From Candidatus Kaiserbacteria bacterium CG10_big_fil_rev_8_21_14_0_10_45_20 (lineage in GTDB: Bacteria; Patescibacteriota; Minisyncoccia; Phycocordibacterales; Phycocordibacteraceae), in assembly GCA_002773335.1 (NCBI GenBank), contig PFBH01000014.1, forward strand, positions 8,023-72,022: DNA of 64,000 nt, given 5' to 3'. Shown here piece by piece: positions 27,428 to 33,672 of the stretch (position 1 is its first letter; every line of letters begins with the position of its first letter). The position numbers and the translations under genes are program-made. The notes under the pieces are model-generated. The model ran no database searches. It was not told the DNA's origin and saw nothing but the letters and a program-made list of their open reading frames with translations.

Positions 27428-28285
27428 ATGGCATTAAAAAAACGAAAACCAAGGACACCTGGAACACGCGGCATGACCTCGATTATGTACCGTGGCGTGG
27501 TCACGACCAACAAGCCTCTCAAGTCGCTTACAAAAGGTAAGGCGGCTCGTGCCGGACGGAACTCGTTTGGACGAATTACAACTCGCCACCAAGGTGCGGG
27601 AAATAAAAAGAAGTTTCGTGATATAGACTTTTTGTTTAATAAAAAAGATGTACCCGGACGAGTTGAGCACATTGAATACGACCCATACCGATCAGGATTT
27701 ATCGCCCGTGTTGTATACCGTGACGGTGAGAGACGATACATTCTTGCTCCACAAAAACTTGGTGTTGATGACACAGTCGTCACATCGGTTGACGCTCCGT
27801 TAAAACCGGGAAATCGACGTCCTCTCAAAAATATTCCCGTAGGAACCTTTGTGTTCAATGTCGAGATTAAAGAGAATGGCGGTGCCAAAATTGCTCGTTC
27901 AGCAGGTAATTACGCCGAGCTCTCTGCTCTTGATGGTGGGTACGCACTTCTCAAGATGCCATCGGGTGAAATACGAAAGGTTGTCGATGGTGCATGGGCA
28001 TCTATTGGTGAAGTTTCAAATCCAGAGTACAGACTGGTAAACAGAGGAAAGGCTGGACGCTCTCGACACTTGGGTATTAGACCTACCGTTCGCGGTACTG
28101 CAATGAACCCGGTTGACCACCCACACGGAGGAGGTGAAGGAAGGCAAGGGAGAGGCACGAAACGAGCAAAGACTGCATGGGGTAAACCATCAGGAAAGGG
28201 TCAAAAGACACGCGCACCAAAGAAATACTCAAACGTCTTTATTGTCTCGAGACGAAAAGTCGGAAAGAGACGCAAGGGAAATTAA
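27428..28285 (+). CDS. rplB: 50S ribosomal protein L2
   Basis: GRNSFGRITTRHQGAG and the C-terminal GGGEGRQGRG. Confidence 0.95.
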   Translation: MALKKRKPRTPGTRGMTSIMYRGVVTTNKPLKSLTKGKAARAGRNSFGRITTRHQGAGNKKKFRDIDFLFNKKDVPGRVEHIEYDPYRSGFIARVVYRDGERRYILAPQKLGVDDTVVTSVDAPLKPGNRRPLKNIPVGTFVFNVEIKENGGAKIARSAGNYAELSALDGGYALLKMPSGEIRKVVDGAWASIGEVSNPEYRLVNRGKAGRSRHLGIRPTVRGTAMNPVDHPHGGGEGRQGRGTKRAKTAWGKPSGKGQKTRAPKKYSNVFIVSRRKVGKRRKGN

Positions 28286-28314
28286 CAAAAAAGACCCTCT
28301 CTTTAGGGTCTTTT

Positions 28315-29001
28315 TTAATATGGGTACTGTTCTGTGTCAGAAAGCTCTTCCTCTAATATTTTTGCTGTTGATGTATTTACAAAGTCTTTGTAGTTGCTAT
28401 TTGGAGTTGTTTCAAATTGTTCGGCGATAATATCTGACTCAAGAAGTCCTCCCCACCGGTTTGCTTCGGTAAGGTCTTGAAGAGAAGACCAAGGATATGA
28501 AAACTCTTTATTTTTCCAAGCAGACAGTTCACGGGGGTTTCTATGAATATATGCTGAAAGGTAGAGTAACTGTTTATTATCTTTTACGTGCACCGATTTA
28601 AAACGGCCTTGAAACACATGACCAGAAAGATGGTGACGTGTATTCATATACATCGTGTGAGCAACGAGGATTCGTTGCATATAGGCACTGATTCCTCCCG
28701 GGATCTTTTCGCGAACAAGGAGGTGGAAGTGGTTAGGCATAAGACAAAAAGAGGTAAGCTCAACAAAACGTGACTGCAAAACCTCAGAAAGCTTTTTTTC
28801 TGAAACGGGAAACCCAGTGAGCGCGTTGTAATTTTTTATATACCGCGTGACATTTTCAAACTGAATTGGTGACTGGAAGTAGAGGATGGAGAATAAAAAA
28901 CGCCGGCGATCAATATCATCTTTAAAAATATTTCCTCTACGCGAACCTCTATTGAAAATGTGGTAGTACTCGCCTTCAGCAATATTGCGTTTCTGAGTCA
29001 T
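28315..29001 (-). CDS. tnpA: HuH Y1 tyrosine transposase (IS200-like TnpA / REP-associated tyrosine transposase-like)
   Basis: HuH motif in CLMPNHFHLLV and catalytic Tyr region LSAYIHRNPRE. The N-terminus YYHIFNRGSRRGNIFKDDIDRRRFL is typical of this family. The start was chosen as Met17 of the track ORF, so the gene does not run into the palindrome. Confidence 0.65.
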   Translation of the reverse strand: MTQKRNIAEGEYYHIFNRGSRRGNIFKDDIDRRRFLFSILYFQSPIQFENVTRYIKNYNALTGFPVSEKKLSEVLQSRFVELTSFCLMPNHFHLLVREKIPGGISAYMQRILVAHTMYMNTRHHLSGHVFQGRFKSVHVKDNKQLLYLSAYIHRNPRELSAWKNKEFSYPWSSLQDLTEANRWGGLLESDIIAEQFETTPNSNYKDFVNTSTAKILEEELSDTEQYPY

Positions 29002-29016
29002 ATCTTTTTTGAGTGT

Positions 29017-29056
29017 AACACAAATGTTGGAGACCCGGGTCTCCAACATTTGTGTT
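29017..29056. repeat. Perfect 40 bp palindrome AACACAAATGTTGGAGACCC|GGGTCTCCAACATTTGTGTT (transposon end hairpin or REP-like)
   Basis: Seen directly in the sequence. No second copy in the window. Confidence 0.8.
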
Positions 29057-29153
29057 GACAGTGTTCATTCACTTGTGTATTCTGTGCATCAAGCTCGTGT
29101 GGGCTCGTGTATAGCGAGCTTTTTTCATTCGGGTACAAATTTATTGCACAATC

Positions 29154-29489
29154 ATGGCACGATCAGTCAAAAAAGGTCCATACATTTTTCACAAACTTAT
29201 TAAAAAAGTGAGTGGCAAAACACCAAAAGAAACTGGTCCTATTAAGACGTGGGCGCGTGCATCACAAATCAGTCCGGACATGGTTGGTTTTACCTTTTTG
29301 GTACACACCGGTAAAGATTTTGCAGAAGTATTTGTATCTGAAGAGATGGTAGGTCACCGACTGGGTGAATTTGCTCCTACAAAGAAATTCCTCCGACACG
29401 GCGGTAAGATGCAGAAGGAGCTTGAGCAGAAGAAGAAAGAGTCTGAAATTGCAGCAGCAAAAGCAGCAAAAGCACCAGCAACAAAATAG
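29154..29489 (+). CDS. rpsS: 30S ribosomal protein S19 (Lys/Ala-rich C-terminal tail)
   Basis: [11 protein letters not shown]...[13 protein letters not shown]. Confidence 0.9.
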
Positions 29490-29492
29490 TAT

Positions 29493-29870
29493 ATGAAAGC
29501 AACACTTAGCAACTATCGTCAGTCTCCCCGTAAAGTTCGCCTCATAACCGAACTTGTAAAGGGTAAGAGTATAGCAGATGCGTTCACAGCGCTTACGTTT
29601 AGCGATAAGCGAGCGTCAGCCCCTATTGAAAAACTCCTTCGTTCTGCGGTTGCAAATGCAGAGCAAGCAGGAGAGAGTCTTAACGAGCTGGTTGTAGAGA
29701 ATATTGCCGTTGATAAGGGTCGCGTGGCAAAGACATATATGCCTCGTGCGTTTGGTCGAGCATCAACCATTCGTAAGCGATCGAGCCACGTAACCGTTAC
29801 CCTCGGAAAGGCAAAGCCAAAGACAGCCCGACACACTAAAGCACCGTCTGCGGGCCAGAAGAAAGCATAA
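29493..29870 (+). CDS. rplV: 50S ribosomal protein L22
   Basis: Position in the operon and L22-like sequence (RQSPRKVRLI...). Confidence 0.85.
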   Translation: MKATLSNYRQSPRKVRLITELVKGKSIADAFTALTFSDKRASAPIEKLLRSAVANAEQAGESLNELVVENIAVDKGRVAKTYMPRAFGRASTIRKRSSHVTVTLGKAKPKTARHTKAPSAGQKKA

Positions 29871-29880
29871 ATTTTTATAT

Positions 29881-30558
29881 ATGACACACACAGTACACCC
29901 ATACTCACACAGATTAGGAATTCTCCGAGACTGGAAAAGTCGTTGGTTTACCGCTGATCCTAAAAAGTACCGACAGTATGTTCGGGCTGACGCAACCATC
30001 CGAGAGTTTCTTGCAAAGCGCCTCAAAGGGAACTACGTTTCTCATATTGAAATTGAACGATCACAGAAAGACTTGCGTATCTCTGTTCATACTGCTCGCC
30101 CCGGAATGGTTATTGGTCGCTCGGGAGAAAACGCGATAAAGATTAAGTCTGAACTTGCTAACCTGCTAAAGAAGGTGTCTCCGCTTGATACCGCACAACT
30201 TCATTTCGATATTATTGAAATTCGTTCTCCTGAATCAAACGCGGCGGTGGTGGCGGCAATGGTTATTGAAGGTTTGGAGAAACGTTTTCCTTTTAGACGA
30301 GTGATGAAGCAAACCATGGACAAAGTAATGGCGAACCGTGATGTGCAAGGAGTAAAAATAAGCCTCTCGGGTATGCTTGGCGGGGCTTCTATGTCTCGTA
30401 CAGAGTCTCTTAAAAAAGGACGTATTCCGCTTCAGACATTCCGTGCTGACATTGATTACGCTCACCAAGAGGCAAGGTTGCCACTTGGCCAAATTGGTGT
30501 AAAAGTATGGATCTACAAAGGAGACGTTTTTAAGGACGAAACTGGCGCACAGTCATAA
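29881..30558 (+). CDS. rpsC: 30S ribosomal protein S3
   Basis: KH domain [11 protein letters not shown] and the conserved S3 C-terminal domain. Confidence 0.9.
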
Positions 30559-30575
30559 TCAGTAAAAGAATTTTT

Positions 30576-30995
30576 ATGTTATTTCCTAAAAAAGTAAAAT
30601 ACAGAAAGTGGAGCTCGGCTCGCTCAAATCCTGAAAAAAAGACGGTAGCAACACGGGGTACGACTGTTGCGTTTGGATCCCACGGCCTTAAGGCGCTGAC
30701 TCCATACCGCATTACATCAAACCAGATTGAAGCGGCTCGCCGAGTTATCTCTCGTTCAATGGGAAAGACGGGACGTATTTGGATCCGTATCTTTCCTGAT
30801 CGTCCGTTTACCCGTAAGGGGGCAGAGACCCCGATGGGTTCCGGAAAGGGAGAACCACAAGGATTTGTGGTTGAGGTAAAGCCGGGGCGGGTAATGTTTG
30901 AAATTGACGGCGTATCTGACGCTGCTGCGCGTGAAGCGTTTCGTCGTGCCACTGCCAAGCTTCCGGTAAAGACGCTCGTCGTAACAAGAACATAA
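30576..30995 (+). CDS. rplP: 50S ribosomal protein L16
   Basis: [11 protein letters not shown]... and the L16 core. Confidence 0.9.
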
Positions 30996-30999
30996 TAAT

Positions 31000-31191
31000 T
31001 TGCATATGAAGACTAAGGATGTTAGGAAGAAGAGCGAAGAGGAACTAAAGAAGCAACTGGCAGAGCTTCAGGAAGAGCTTCGCACGATCAGATTTGGGAT
31101 GGCCGGATCTGTGAAGCAGAATGTGCGAAAGCCGTCGCACCTAAAGAGTGACATTGCCAGAATTAAAACCATCCTCGCGGAAAAACAATAA
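31000..31191 (+). CDS. rpmC: 50S ribosomal protein L29
   Basis: Coiled-coil L29-like 63 aa in the operon position. Confidence 0.8.
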   Translation: MHMKTKDVRKKSEEELKKQLAELQEELRTIRFGMAGSVKQNVRKPSHLKSDIARIKTILAEKQ

Positions 31192-31195
31192 ACGT

Positions 31196-31447
31196 ATGAC
31201 TGATCAAACACCAACAAAAACTTCTAAACCAAAAACGCTTCGCGGGGTGGTTACGTCTGCAAAAATGAAAGACACCGTAACGGTTTCTGTTACGCGGTTT
31301 GTAAAAGACCCAAAGTACAAAAAGTACGCAACTGTTTCGAAGAAGTACCTCGCGCACGATCCCGGAAACACAAAAGCGGAGGGCGACAAGGTAACGATAG
31401 AAGAGTGTCGACCGCTCTCTAAGAGAAAGTCATTTAAAGTTATATGA
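31196..31447 (+). CDS. rpsQ: 30S ribosomal protein S17
   Basis: LRGVVTSAKMKDTVTVSV...KKYLAHD. The start is set at the Met just after the L29 stop. Confidence 0.8.
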   Translation: MTDQTPTKTSKPKTLRGVVTSAKMKDTVTVSVTRFVKDPKYKKYATVSKKYLAHDPGNTKAEGDKVTIEECRPLSKRKSFKVI

Positions 31448-31824
31448 TACAACCACAATCAATTGTTACGATAACTGATAACAGCGGAGGAAAGATCGGA
31501 CGCGTCTTTAAGGTGCTTGGTGGATCAAAGCGCCGTTATGCTGAGCTGGGCGACAAAGTTGTTCTTTCGGTACAAATTGCCGAGCCCCGTAAGGGAGTAA
31601 AGAAAAAGGATGTCCTCCACGCAGTTGTAGTGCGCCAAAGAAAGGCATTTCGCAGACAAGACGGTTCGTACATTCGCTTTGATGATAACGCGGTCGTCAT
31701 TCTTGCTAAGAACGAAAAAGATCCGTTTGAGCCAAAAGCAAACCGAGTGTTTGGACCAATCCCCCGAGAAATTGTAGAGCGCGGATATCAAAAAATAGGT
31801 TCATTAGCCCCTGAGGTTGTATAA
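31444..31824 (+). CDS. rplN: 50S ribosomal protein L14
   Basis: MIQPQSIVTITDNSGGK. Confidence 0.95.
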   Translation: MIQPQSIVTITDNSGGKIGRVFKVLGGSKRRYAELGDKVVLSVQIAEPRKGVKKKDVLHAVVVRQRKAFRRQDGSYIRFDDNAVVILAKNEKDPFEPKANRVFGPIPREIVERGYQKIGSLAPEVV

Positions 31825-32132
31825 TGTATATGAAAATAAAAAAAGGAGACAAGGTAGTGGTTATTTCAGGAAAAGACAAGGGTAAAGCCGGCGTAGTTTC
31901 TCGCGCGCTTCCGTTAGATCAAAAAGTTATTGTGGGCGGAGTGAATGTCCGTAAAAAGCACAAGAAGCCACAGCGTGGCGTGAAGGGGACTATTATCAGC
32001 ATTGAGATGCCTATCGCTGTTTCAAATGTTATGCTTGTTGATCCAAAAAGCGGTAAGAGGACTCGCGTTGGCATTGTGCGAAAGGACGGGGTACGAACAC
32101 GCGTCACCAAGAAGGGGAATCAAGAAATATAA
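31824..32132 (+). CDS. rplX: 50S ribosomal protein L24
   Basis: KIKKGDKVVVISGKDKGK KOW motif. Confidence 0.9.
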   Translation: MYMKIKKGDKVVVISGKDKGKAGVVSRALPLDQKVIVGGVNVRKKHKKPQRGVKGTIISIEMPIAVSNVMLVDPKSGKRTRVGIVRKDGVRTRVTKKGNQEI

Positions 32133-32143
32133 TATAAAAATAT

Positions 32144-32680
32144 ATGAGCATTGTTCAAGAAAGACAAAAAGAAGGATTTAAGACACTCAAAGATACATTT
32201 GGATACTCTAATGTATTTCAGTCGCCACGCTTGATAAAGGTGGTTGTTTCAACAGGTATCGGCAAAATAAAAGACAAGAACAAAATTCAAACCATTCAAG
32301 ACAAACTTGCCCTCATTACGGGTCAAAAGGTTGCACCACGCGGAGCAAAGAAATCTATCGCTTCTTTTAAGGTTCGCGAGGGAGACATTGTGGGGTATCA
32401 GGTAACGCTCCGTGGAAAGAGAATGTACGACTTTCTCGACAAAGTTATTCATATCGCGCTTCCCCGAACTCGGGACTTCAGAGGCCTTAAGCCAACGGCT
32501 ATTGATGAAATGGGCAATATGACACTTGGAATCAAAGAGAATACCATCTTTCCTGAAACGACTGACGAAGACTTGAGAGATGTGTTCGGCATTGCGATTA
32601 CCGTTGTTTCAACGGCAAAAGACAAAAAAGAGGCAGAGGCATTTTACCGGCACCTCGGCTTTCCGCTCCAGAACGATTAA
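32144..32680 (+). CDS. rplE: 50S ribosomal protein L5
   Basis: Conserved L5 core (FGYSNVFQSPRL...). Confidence 0.9.
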   Translation: MSIVQERQKEGFKTLKDTFGYSNVFQSPRLIKVVVSTGIGKIKDKNKIQTIQDKLALITGQKVAPRGAKKSIASFKVREGDIVGYQVTLRGKRMYDFLDKVIHIALPRTRDFRGLKPTAIDEMGNMTLGIKENTIFPETTDEDLRDVFGIAITVVSTAKDKKEAEAFYRHLGFPLQND

Positions 32681-32701
32681 CTCTTATCGTCTCTATTTTT
32701 A

Positions 32702-32740
32702 AAAACCCCGCCAATCTATTTTTGATTGGCGGGGTTTTTG
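32702..32740 (+). terminator. Strong rho-independent terminator (15 bp GC-rich stem AAAACCCCGCCAATC / GATTGGCGGGGTTTT, then T run)
   Basis: Seen in the sequence directly after the rplE stop. Confidence 0.75.
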
Positions 32741-33203
32741 CGACTCTAGCGAGGTTTTATGGTAAGAAGTGGCTTAATAAAAAGCCCTCAATCGCCTAAA
32801 ATGCGTAGCGTTTTAGGCGATTAGGCATTAAAAAACCTGCCCTTTTTGCCCTTGTCCCCTTAAAACTCCCCGCATGCGGTGAGTTTTTTAATAATAAAGA
32901 AATAAATACAGAACCGAATTCCTCAACAGAATCTCGTCATTTTAGGTGCGACCGCATCTAAAATGACGAGATTGAGGATAGGTTTCAGTGAGGGCGTGTT
33001 TGAAAATCCACCCGAAAAATTTCAACTGTTTTATTTGTGCTCTGGTCCCTGTGCTTTGTGTTTTATTTGGTTTTTTGGACTTCTGTGTTTTGCGCTTTCT
33101 CTTTCTAAGCACTAATAACTAATTTTCTCATAACTCATACATCGTATTTCATTTCCCCCAGCTAATCCCTAATTCCCTAACAACCTAAAATCCTAGTTTT
33201 TCC

Positions 33204-33232
33204 TTGACTCTCTACCCCTTGGCTGTTACTAT
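33204..33232 (+). promoter_or_regulatory. Sigma70-like promoter: TTGACT, 17 nt spacer, TACTAT
   Basis: A near-consensus -35/-10 pair with a 17 nt spacer, about 170 nt upstream of rpsN. A structured, GC-richer 5' leader follows (33260-33400). Confidence 0.5.
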
Positions 33233-33402
33233 GCCCCCAGCTTTATAAGCGCCTCTTTTTTGCTCTCTATGGGCGGAAGAGCGCTCAAAGGCTGAAAACC
33301 CTCCTGATTCGTCGGGAAAGGTTCACCGAAAGTGAGTAAACCTTCTGGTTGTATGGGGCTTAAGCCTCACTGCTCACGTTTCGCTCGATACATTAATTTA
33401 CA

Positions 33403-33672
33403 ATGGCAAAAAAATCACAAATTGCACGAAATGCAAAACGCGTTCGCCTTTCGAAACGGTTTGCAGAAAAAAGAGAAACGCTAAAGAAAGCTGGAGACTA
33501 CGAAGGTCTGCAGAAGCTTCCACGTAACGCAAGTCCGGTGCGTATTAAAAACCGTTGCGCAATCACCGGTCGTTCTCGTGGGTATATGCGCCTCTTTGGC
33601 CTTTCACGAATCCAGTTCAGAGAGATGGCAAACCGTGGCGAGATTCCGGGCATTAAAAAAGCATCATGGTAA
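33403..33672 (+). CDS. rpsN: 30S ribosomal protein S14 (long, non-zinc form)
   Basis: 89 aa, [28 protein letters not shown]. Confidence 0.9.

Follow-up and report, generated by a model that had tools for sequence, protein, structure and literature searches.

In the classification of Y1 transposase-like proteins by Quentin et al. (2018; PMC6006769), class 1.1 holds the true IS200 transposases, which carry a Y---Q motif and are about 150 aa long. Subclass 2.1 carries NH[YF]H, FQ, Y[IV]HxNP and an SS tail, has a median length of 238 aa and corresponds to Bertels group 1, the TIRYTs; for this subclass the same paper reported no REP-like structures (REP, repetitive extragenic palindrome) and a helix-turn-helix (HTH) domain in part of its members. 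The repeats of TIRYTs and TIRtrons, some of which are 'partly or wholly self-complementary', have the consensus GGGGWSAS (Di Nocera et al. 2013; PMC3733652). REP-associated tyrosine transposases (RAYTs) are described as single-copy, vertically inherited and housekeeping-like by Bertels et al. (2017; PMC5581495), and Corneloup et al. (2021; PMC8266576) give perfect-palindrome REPs as known substrates of one RAYT group. The structure of the E. coli RAYT YafM (4ER8) was reported by Messing et al. (2012; PMC3479197). Here, we analysed a Y1/HUH gene and a perfect 40-bp palindrome that lie between the ribosomal protein (r-protein) genes rplB and rpsS in a 64-kb stretch of contig PFBH01000014.1 from the metagenome-assembled genome Candidatus Kaiserbacteria bacterium CG10_big_fil_rev_8_21_14_0_10_45_20; this whole stretch is referred to below as the window.

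Adjacent in the canonical S10 operon, rplB and rpsS are separated in the window by 868 bp (28286-29153 by open reading frame (ORF) calls). This spacer contains a bidirectional terminator-like hairpin, the minus-strand Y1/HUH gene, the palindrome, and a promoter and hairpin/T-run leader for rpsS. We consider it probable that the spacer holds an ancient, immobilised, fixed single-copy cassette of the REPtron/TIRtron kind, whose arrival divided the S10-spc cluster and which now belongs to the promoter architecture of that cluster. Previous work has described RAYTs, TIRYTs and the repeats that flank them, and the protein itself is already in public databases, deposited as a 'hypothetical protein' (PIR85161.1) and carrying a Pfam-level label in UniRef ('Transposase IS200-like domain-containing protein'). 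Literature searches linking Y1, RAYT or IS200 with Patescibacteria, the Candidate Phyla Radiation (CPR) or r-protein operons returned nothing relevant; nor did they find a Patescibacteria-wide Y1 family with self-contained perfect hairpins, fixation of a Y1 gene inside S10-spc, or a palindrome fused to Y1 and rpsS promoters. For the cellular role of RAYT- and TIRYT-type 'domesticated transposases', the locus described here offers an unusually clean case: a single-copy gene in genomes of ~0.7 Mb, under apparently strong purifying selection, with undispersed palindromes at promoters in the most conserved bacterial gene cluster.

A predicted RAYT-side Y1/HUH protein is encoded between rplB and rpsS

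The mechanical minus-strand ORF spans 28315-29049 (244 aa), contains NHFHLL and YIHRNP, and starts inside the palindrome. This call was rejected because more than 100 close homologues start at the second methionine (MTQKRN in the window, MT..R in general), giving a gene of 228 aa at 28315-29001. The HUH motif is H91-F-H93 (codons 28731-28723), and the catalytic tyrosine lies in Y151-IHRNP (Y codon 28551-28549), followed by YPWSS and a conserved C-terminal tail. Among 21 aligned orthologues, H91, H93 and Y151 were invariant, and YPWSS and a long C-terminal stretch were invariant or nearly so. The protein matched Pfam Y1_Tnp (PF01797) with 41.9 bits (cut-off 23; E 1.3e-10) and no other Pfam family at E ≤ 1, the C-terminal domains Bac_DnaA_C, HTH_23 and HTH_28 among those not detected at that threshold. 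No IS200-type NCBIfam model matched at E ≤ 1.

The AlphaFold2 model (predicted local distance difference test, pLDDT, 79; predicted TM-score, pTM, 0.81) was confident over the catalytic core and of low confidence in the C-terminal helices. Its best Foldseek match was 4ER8, the E. coli RAYT with a REP hairpin (E 7.7e-7; TM-score 0.69 on the target), followed by the TnpA proteins of ISDra2, IS608 and IS200; 4ER8, 2XMA, 2A6O and 2VJV were all assigned probability 1.00. Set against Table 1 of Quentin et al., the motifs NHFH, FQ (in VFQGRF), YIHRNP and the SS tail (YPWSS), together with the length of 228 aa, reproduce the subclass 2.1 pattern. By motifs and length, the protein appears to belong to class 2, the RAYT side, and most resembles TnpA_Y1 subclass 2.1.

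The likeness to each described group is partial. With RAYTs the protein shares the HUH/Y1 fold, 4ER8 as best structural match and the class 2 Y---NP motif, but it is about 60 residues longer, carries a distinct conserved C-terminal tail and falls below the cut-off of the RAYT model NF047646 (37 vs 80 bits). It resembles subclass 2.1 in its motif set, in a length near the 238-aa median, in low copy number and in having no dispersed REP family, whereas the C-terminal HTH found in part of that subclass was not detected (Pfam E ≤ 1). The IS200/IS605 elements (IS608, ISDra2, IS200) have the same HUH/Y1 catalytic fold; unlike them, the window gene encodes Y---NP rather than Y---Q and 228 rather than about 150 aa, and has no tnpB. 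The original prediction had described an insert splitting rplB and rpsS, with a HuH/Y1 ORF of about 229 aa that was longer than IS200 TnpA and nearer to RAYTs. All of the listed features were present at the coordinates given, the Pfam match, the Foldseek result and the Y---NP motif bore out the nature and affinity of the ORF, and the length was close to the 228 aa found here.

The gene appears to be a fixed resident of the rplB–rpsS junction

Genomic contexts were compared for seven close homologues (three plus four) and the 80 best genome matches, with uL23, uL2, uS19 and uL22 located in each fetched locus by tblastn; loci are cited by number (L002 and so on) where they need to be told apart. 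The Y1 gene lay directly beside rpsS in 22/22 members of the closest Patescibacteria clade, window included. On its other side was rplB in 18 of these loci, and in the remaining four rplB was outside the fetched DNA. Orthologue identities were 50-74% for Y1, 63-75% for uL2 and 70-89% for uS19. In a neighbour-joining tree of 88 family members, the 22 syntenic Y1 genes formed one bipartition in 29/30 bootstraps. The ratio of nonsynonymous to synonymous substitution rates (dN/dS) was 0.02-0.07 in the three unsaturated orthologue pairs, and no second Y1 copy or fragment was found in the window. Y1 relatives in Patescibacteria number in the thousands, nearly all of about 225 aa and almost all in singleton protein clusters. 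From these sequence comparisons, the gene is evidently under strong purifying selection, and synteny and tree together indicate a conserved, non-mobile, vertically inherited cassette of single origin in the clade.

The same comparisons bear on whether an active or recently active IS200/IS605 insertion landed between rplB and rpsS in this genome. Such an insertion would fit the Pfam Y1_Tnp match and a hairpin or palindrome at each end of the spacer, and the family must have moved at some time, since its locus varies between lineages and a few genomes carry several divergent paralogues. We nevertheless regard a recent insertion as very unlikely, given the shared site in every clade member at 50-74% identity, the monophyly of the syntenic clade, the low dN/dS, the single copy in 64 kb, the class 2 sequence features set out above and a 3′ hairpin that is an ordinary terminator. 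IS200/IS605 elements are also unlike this gene in that the latter is syntenic over long distances and strongly constrained. The two corresponding parts of the original prediction, an IS200/IS605-like element and an insertion event in this genome, were therefore not upheld: the protein has Y---NP, 228 aa and no IS200 NCBIfam match, and the same gene stands beside rpsS throughout the clade, an outcome that the prediction itself had named as speaking against it.

The palindrome is the likely cognate element of the Y1 gene

The 40-bp palindrome (29017-29056) lies between the divergent Y1 and rpsS promoters and consists of two perfectly complementary 20-nt arms (AACACAAATGTTGGAGACCC and GGGTCTCCAACATTTGTGTT) with no loop. 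No other perfect palindrome in the window reaches an arm length of 10 nt. Its arm is unique there (chance expectation 0.01 matches), and no extra copies were found in the 64 kb at up to 3 mismatches, or at 1 mismatch on the inner arm. A palindrome occurs just upstream of the rpsS promoter in all 22 clade loci, perfect in 18 and degenerate in four; the arms measure 12-22 nt, and CCCGGG, CCGG or CCTAGG stands at the centre. Its sequence varies by species, together with the Y1 lineage, while self-complementarity is kept. In L008, L009, L010 and L046 a 24-nt core is identical although Y1 dS reaches 1.2, so the core itself must be under constraint.

Copies in relatives tie the palindrome to the Y1 gene. 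An identical species-specific palindrome is present on both sides of Y1 in nine loci (L002, L003, L005, L008-L010, L014, L046 and L043), among which L043 is non-syntenic and L003 has the divergent orientation. In the eight loci where Y1 and rpsS are co-oriented, another copy precedes the Y1 start codon by 12-29 nt (in L086 this copy is cut by the contig start). Across the wider family, at whatever locus, the Y1 gene is preceded by a hairpin at 0-30 nt from its start and has another on or immediately past its stop; these hairpins are mostly of a single type, TGTnnAACAC[CGA]GTGTTnnACA. Exact matches of at least 17 nt between the two 150-nt flanks were found in 52/82 family loci, compared with 3/410 in a mismatched-locus control. 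These sequence data identify the palindrome as the probable cognate element of the gene, in an arrangement like that of REPtrons and TIRtrons, and substantiate the earlier suggestion of a REP-like partner.

A gene flanked on both sides by cognate palindromes is thus seen in relatives; the window keeps the 5′ copy only. We considered the 3′ terminator hairpin of the window as a degenerate second palindrome, as the two have AGACCC/GGGTCT in common, and rejected this because other divergent loci carry unrelated terminators there; the resemblance to the palindrome centre was judged to be chance.

Like REPtrons, the cassette shows single-copy, vertical, housekeeping-like evolution, relatives have cognate palindromes on both sides of the gene, and some REP groups are perfect palindromes too. 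Unlike REPtrons, the family hairpins showed no GTAG (or CGTC) tag, their conserved TGT...ACA being part of the stem; no dispersed population was detected (0 extra copies in 64 kb); and the palindromes of the clade are loop-free, promoter-linked and at a fixed site inside the S10-spc cluster. Inverted repeats flank the gene in TIRYTs as well, but GGGGWSAS is absent from the palindromes and hairpins, and REP-like hairpins, which Quentin et al. did not report for subclass 2.1, are almost always present in this family. In common with IS200/IS605 elements, most family members have hairpins near both gene ends; these are perfect, symmetric and either direct or inverted, in contrast to the imperfect, subterminal, same-strand left-end and right-end hairpins of the insertion sequences.

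Only one solo palindrome was found in the ~0.7 Mb of related loci. In L016, at 1384-1419 (and 1330-1380), it directly follows rplE and precedes TTGACA-17-TATAGT and an ORF for a secreted protein. The palindrome and promoter therefore occur as a module away from Y1 and beyond rpsS.

This solo copy could also be read in favour of a different origin, in which an unrelated host transcription factor controls the rpsS promoter through the palindrome as its operator or UP-type site, and Y1 is a passenger. The near-fixed distance from palindrome centre to -35 (~17-20 nt) and the symmetry through the centre would suit such a site. Against this, the palindrome recurs upstream of Y1 in all eight co-oriented loci (the L086 copy being cut), a position without an r-protein promoter; at the unrelated loci fusA–tuf, gyrA, pth and secD, Y1 homologues are flanked by hairpins homologous to it; and the palindrome sequence shifts by species along with the Y1 lineage. 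We consider the host-factor site improbable, and the cognate-element reading is retained.

Two further palindrome-bearing contigs were noted. L084, an unrelated metagenome contig, contains at 1183-1222 a perfect palindrome of 34 bp whose 22-nt core (GTTGGAGACCCGGGTCTCCAAC) is that of the window palindrome, which is probably a coincidence. L086 begins within its upstream palindrome (1-25), and 7 nt are missing from one arm of its rpsS-proximal copy; such palindromes probably break short-read assemblies, as this contig end illustrates.

The Y1 gene has been inverted in place repeatedly

Y1 is divergent from rpsS in 14 clade loci, window included, and co-oriented with it in eight. Divergent and co-oriented loci are intermingled on the tree, which takes no fewer than four changes to explain, and the rpsS-proximal palindrome and promoter are the same in either state. 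In divergent loci, with the exception of L003, the rplB-proximal palindrome copy is replaced by an ordinary bidirectional terminator. Since any two copies of a palindrome form a pair of inverted repeats, their recombination turns the gene round and leaves both palindromes intact. On the evidence of tree and orientation, in-place inversion has happened at least four times. The copies that are retained are always adjacent to a promoter: before Y1 and before rpsS, which in the divergent state is one and the same palindrome.

Inversions bounded by palindromes raise the prospect of a co-opted regulator or switch, in which Y1 bound to the palindrome (at about -55 of the rpsS promoter) controls the distal r-protein genes, or Y1-catalysed inversion turns them on and off. 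The position of the palindrome between two promoters, the portability of palindrome plus promoter and the strong conservation of protein and palindrome core in streamlined ~0.7-Mb genomes all speak for it. However, the rpsS promoter and palindrome keep their orientation to rpsS in either state, and inversion thus leaves the promoter connected; no obvious promoter lies past the downstream hairpin in family members at other loci; and orientation looks fixed within lineages rather than polymorphic. We rate this explanation as unlikely and continue with that of a fixed cassette.

The S10-spc cluster is predicted to be rewired around the cassette

In the window, rplB (uL2; 27428..28285, plus strand) is the last gene of the upstream transcription unit, as called by ORF and translation. 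It is followed by a hairpin at 28287-28316 (arms AAAAAAGACCCT at 28287-28298 and AGGGTCTTTTTT at 28305-28316, 6-nt loop) with an A-run upstream and a T-run downstream, which scores as an intrinsic terminator, possibly on both strands. The hairpin overlaps the Y1 stop codon (28315-28317) and would end both rplB and the convergent Y1 transcript. Relatives with the divergent orientation have unrelated terminator hairpins at the same place.

On the far side of the gene, a predicted rpsS promoter (29055-29083, plus strand) consists of -35 TTGACA (29055-29060), a 17-nt spacer and -10 TATTCT (29078-29083), with 10/12 consensus matches and a -35 that overlaps the last 2 nt of the palindrome. TTGAC[AG] (TTGC in two loci), a 17-18-nt spacer and TAnnnT were found between palindrome and rpsS in 22/22 loci, and the centre of the palindrome is ~17-20 nt from the start of the -35 in most, independent of arm length. 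The promoter spacer is G-rich in nearly all 21 related loci (e.g. GGGTGGGGAGGGCGCGC) and AT-rich in the window (29061-29077). This promoter precedes rpsS (uS19; 29154..29489, plus strand), the head of an rpsS-rplV-rpsC-rplP-rpmC-rpsQ-rplN-rplX-rplE unit whose gene order is identical in related loci.

The Y1 gene has its own putative extended -10, TGtTACACT (minus strand, 29020-29012), which begins at the outermost base of the palindrome and is 10 nt away from the start codon. Relatives have TATAAT or TGnTAnnnT past the upstream hairpin, 10-13 nt ahead of the Y1 ATG. The Y1 mRNA would accordingly be near-leaderless, with its ATG at 29001. With the Y1 -10 on its edge, the palindrome overlaps the Y1 core promoter and adjoins the rpsS promoter upstream.

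Near-leaderless rpsS genes, too, are found in part of the clade, with only 5-12 nt between -10 box and ATG. The window and eight relatives have an rpsS leader of 60-100 nt with common elements (29090-29153 in the window, plus strand). A small hairpin, AGCUC-GUGU-GGGCU (29092-29105), has a GNRA loop in relatives. A terminator-like hairpin, GGGCUCG/CGAGCUU (29101-29121), re-uses GGGCUCG as its 5′ arm and competes with the small one; it is followed by a U-run (29120-29125) and a conserved UUCGGGU (29128-29134), and hairpin plus T-run (29101-29126) lie 28 nt before the rpsS start. RNAalifold gave the nine leaders a consensus in which the longer hairpin has 13 pairs, two of them compensatory, too little covariation to prove the structure. 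Rfam searches over 28200-33500, at gathering cut-offs and at E ≤ 5, returned generic hairpin noise and no leader family. We infer that the leader is a candidate attenuator. In E. coli, the S10 leader attenuator is controlled by L4, and the window leader resembles such r-protein leaders in having a promoter followed by a hairpin and U-run before the first r-protein gene, and an alternative small hairpin with a common 5′ arm. It differs from them in having no Rfam match and in being present in only part of the clade.

This arrangement modifies the earlier view that the insertion had left the operon apparently functional. The operon does not owe its function to luck; it has a conserved arrangement of predicted terminator, promoter and leader built around the cassette. 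A decaying relic, kept only because the rpsS promoter would be lost with it, was also considered: that promoter adjoins the palindrome, and the window has lost its second palindrome. A relic is hard to reconcile with an intact 228-aa ORF of conserved length and invariant catalytic residues, a dN/dS far below 1 and a catalytic core that AlphaFold2 models confidently, and we give it almost no credence.

A model for the cassette and its weighing

In the model that we favour, a 'hairpin - Y1 - hairpin' unit would have been acquired once, at the rplB–rpsS junction, by the ancestor of the Kaiserbacteria/Paceibacteria-type clade, and then passed down vertically under strong purifying selection. S10-spc would have been rewired around it: rplB would end at the bidirectional terminator, and rpsS with the eight following genes would be driven by the conserved sigma-70-type promoter whose -35 abuts the palindrome, followed in the sub-lineage of the window by the attenuator-like leader hairpin. 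With the Y1 -10 on the opposite edge, a single palindrome would serve both promoters in the divergent state. The gene would have flipped in place several times through the inverted palindrome copies, after which the promoter-adjacent copies alone were retained. The Y1 protein may recognise the palindrome either as a single-stranded DNA hairpin, like RAYTs and IS608 TnpA, or as duplex DNA, and might nick and rejoin it. Its binding may repress its own promoter and could also modulate that of rpsS. Binding and cleavage of the palindrome are suggested here by analogy with these proteins.

A stronger version, in which the domesticated Y1 and its palindrome are a co-opted cis/trans control module that tunes or insulates the distal nine r-protein genes, is speculative, and the chances are well against it. 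The palindrome would then act from ~55 nt upstream of the rpsS transcription start while overlapping the Y1 promoter, and the module would be portable, as in the solo copy of L016. If true, it would provide a concrete cellular function for a RAYT-type protein. Palindrome binding, cutting and the effect on transcription are testable with one protein and one 40-bp DNA.

Several observations weigh against the fixed REPtron/TIRtron-like cassette. The window itself holds a single palindrome and an unrelated 3′ hairpin, and the two-sided arrangement comes from relatives. Palindrome copies were counted in the window and ~0.7 Mb of related loci, and a metagenome scan for the palindrome core yielded one contig, L084, which has no similarity to the window and is uninformative on dispersal. 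Perfect symmetry through the centre (CCGG or CTAG) exceeds what a hairpin needs and suits a dimeric binder of duplex DNA at least equally well; the change from CCGG to CTAG is a symmetric double change, and the symmetry could equally reflect such a dimeric binder or concerted evolution of the two arms. At the protein level, the sub-threshold RAYT model was the sole NCBIfam match at E ≤ 1, and searching the PDB with a sequence profile gave just a weak match to ISDra2, around the HUH motif (E 0.017). The Y1 tree is a neighbour-joining tree on ~230 columns. The promoters, terminator and attenuator are predicted consensus matches backed by conservation.

For annotation, the Y1 gene should not be taken as evidence of a mobile element. 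The S10-spc block, on which CPR phylogenomics and operon-based gene calling draw, is broken at this point, in some relatives by several kb of cargo.

The wider family and the neighbourhood of the cassette

Other subclades of the family occupy other housekeeping junctions: fusA–tuf (L022, 4825-5892), beside gyrA (L026, L069), after pth (L026) and before secD (L043). Each subclade retains its synteny, with occasional in-place inversions.

On the rplB side of the cassette, several lineages have 250-700 bp of extra non-coding DNA or small ORFs, and L002 has a 317-aa ORF. In L008-L010 and L046 a 1047-aa surface-repeat protein is encoded between rplB and the cassette (L008, 1759-4902). The junction was evidently a permissive site once the operon had been split. 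Very large Ser/Thr-rich surface or secreted repeat proteins (497-1164 aa) have thus built up on the rplB side of the cassette in these four loci. Such proteins are also encoded next to the distant Y1 homologues of L065 and L082, which are 2-2.4 kb upstream of rpsS; the fetched DNA there, at least 7.5 kb upstream of rpsS, contains no rplB.

Some lineages keep several distinct cassettes, since two Y1 homologues were found in single 7-11-kb loci (L054, 37-672 and 5001-5645; L075, 5001-5642 and 10154-10633) and three assemblies have two or three divergent Y1 paralogues (L039/L043/L058, L047/L056 and L040/L063). In ten non-syntenic relatives (L012, L017, L019, L021, L023, L025, L033, L035, L037 and L039) a third copy of the flanking hairpin lies inside the Y1 coding sequence, at a conserved position (nt ~155-190, codons ~52-63); this intragenic copy is absent from the clade of the window.

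Downstream in the window, rplE and rpsN are separated by a non-coding gap of 722 bp (32681-33402), compared with 140-300 bp in relatives, and Rfam found no match in it. The gap contains four strong hairpins (32696-32743, a bidirectional terminator; 32783-32826; 32863-32890; and 32925-32975) and a promoter-like TTGACT-17-TACTAT (33205-33233) that is followed by a leader of ~170 nt with a hairpin at 33248-33287. At least three transcription units seem to make up the r-protein cluster, which would be cut accordingly.

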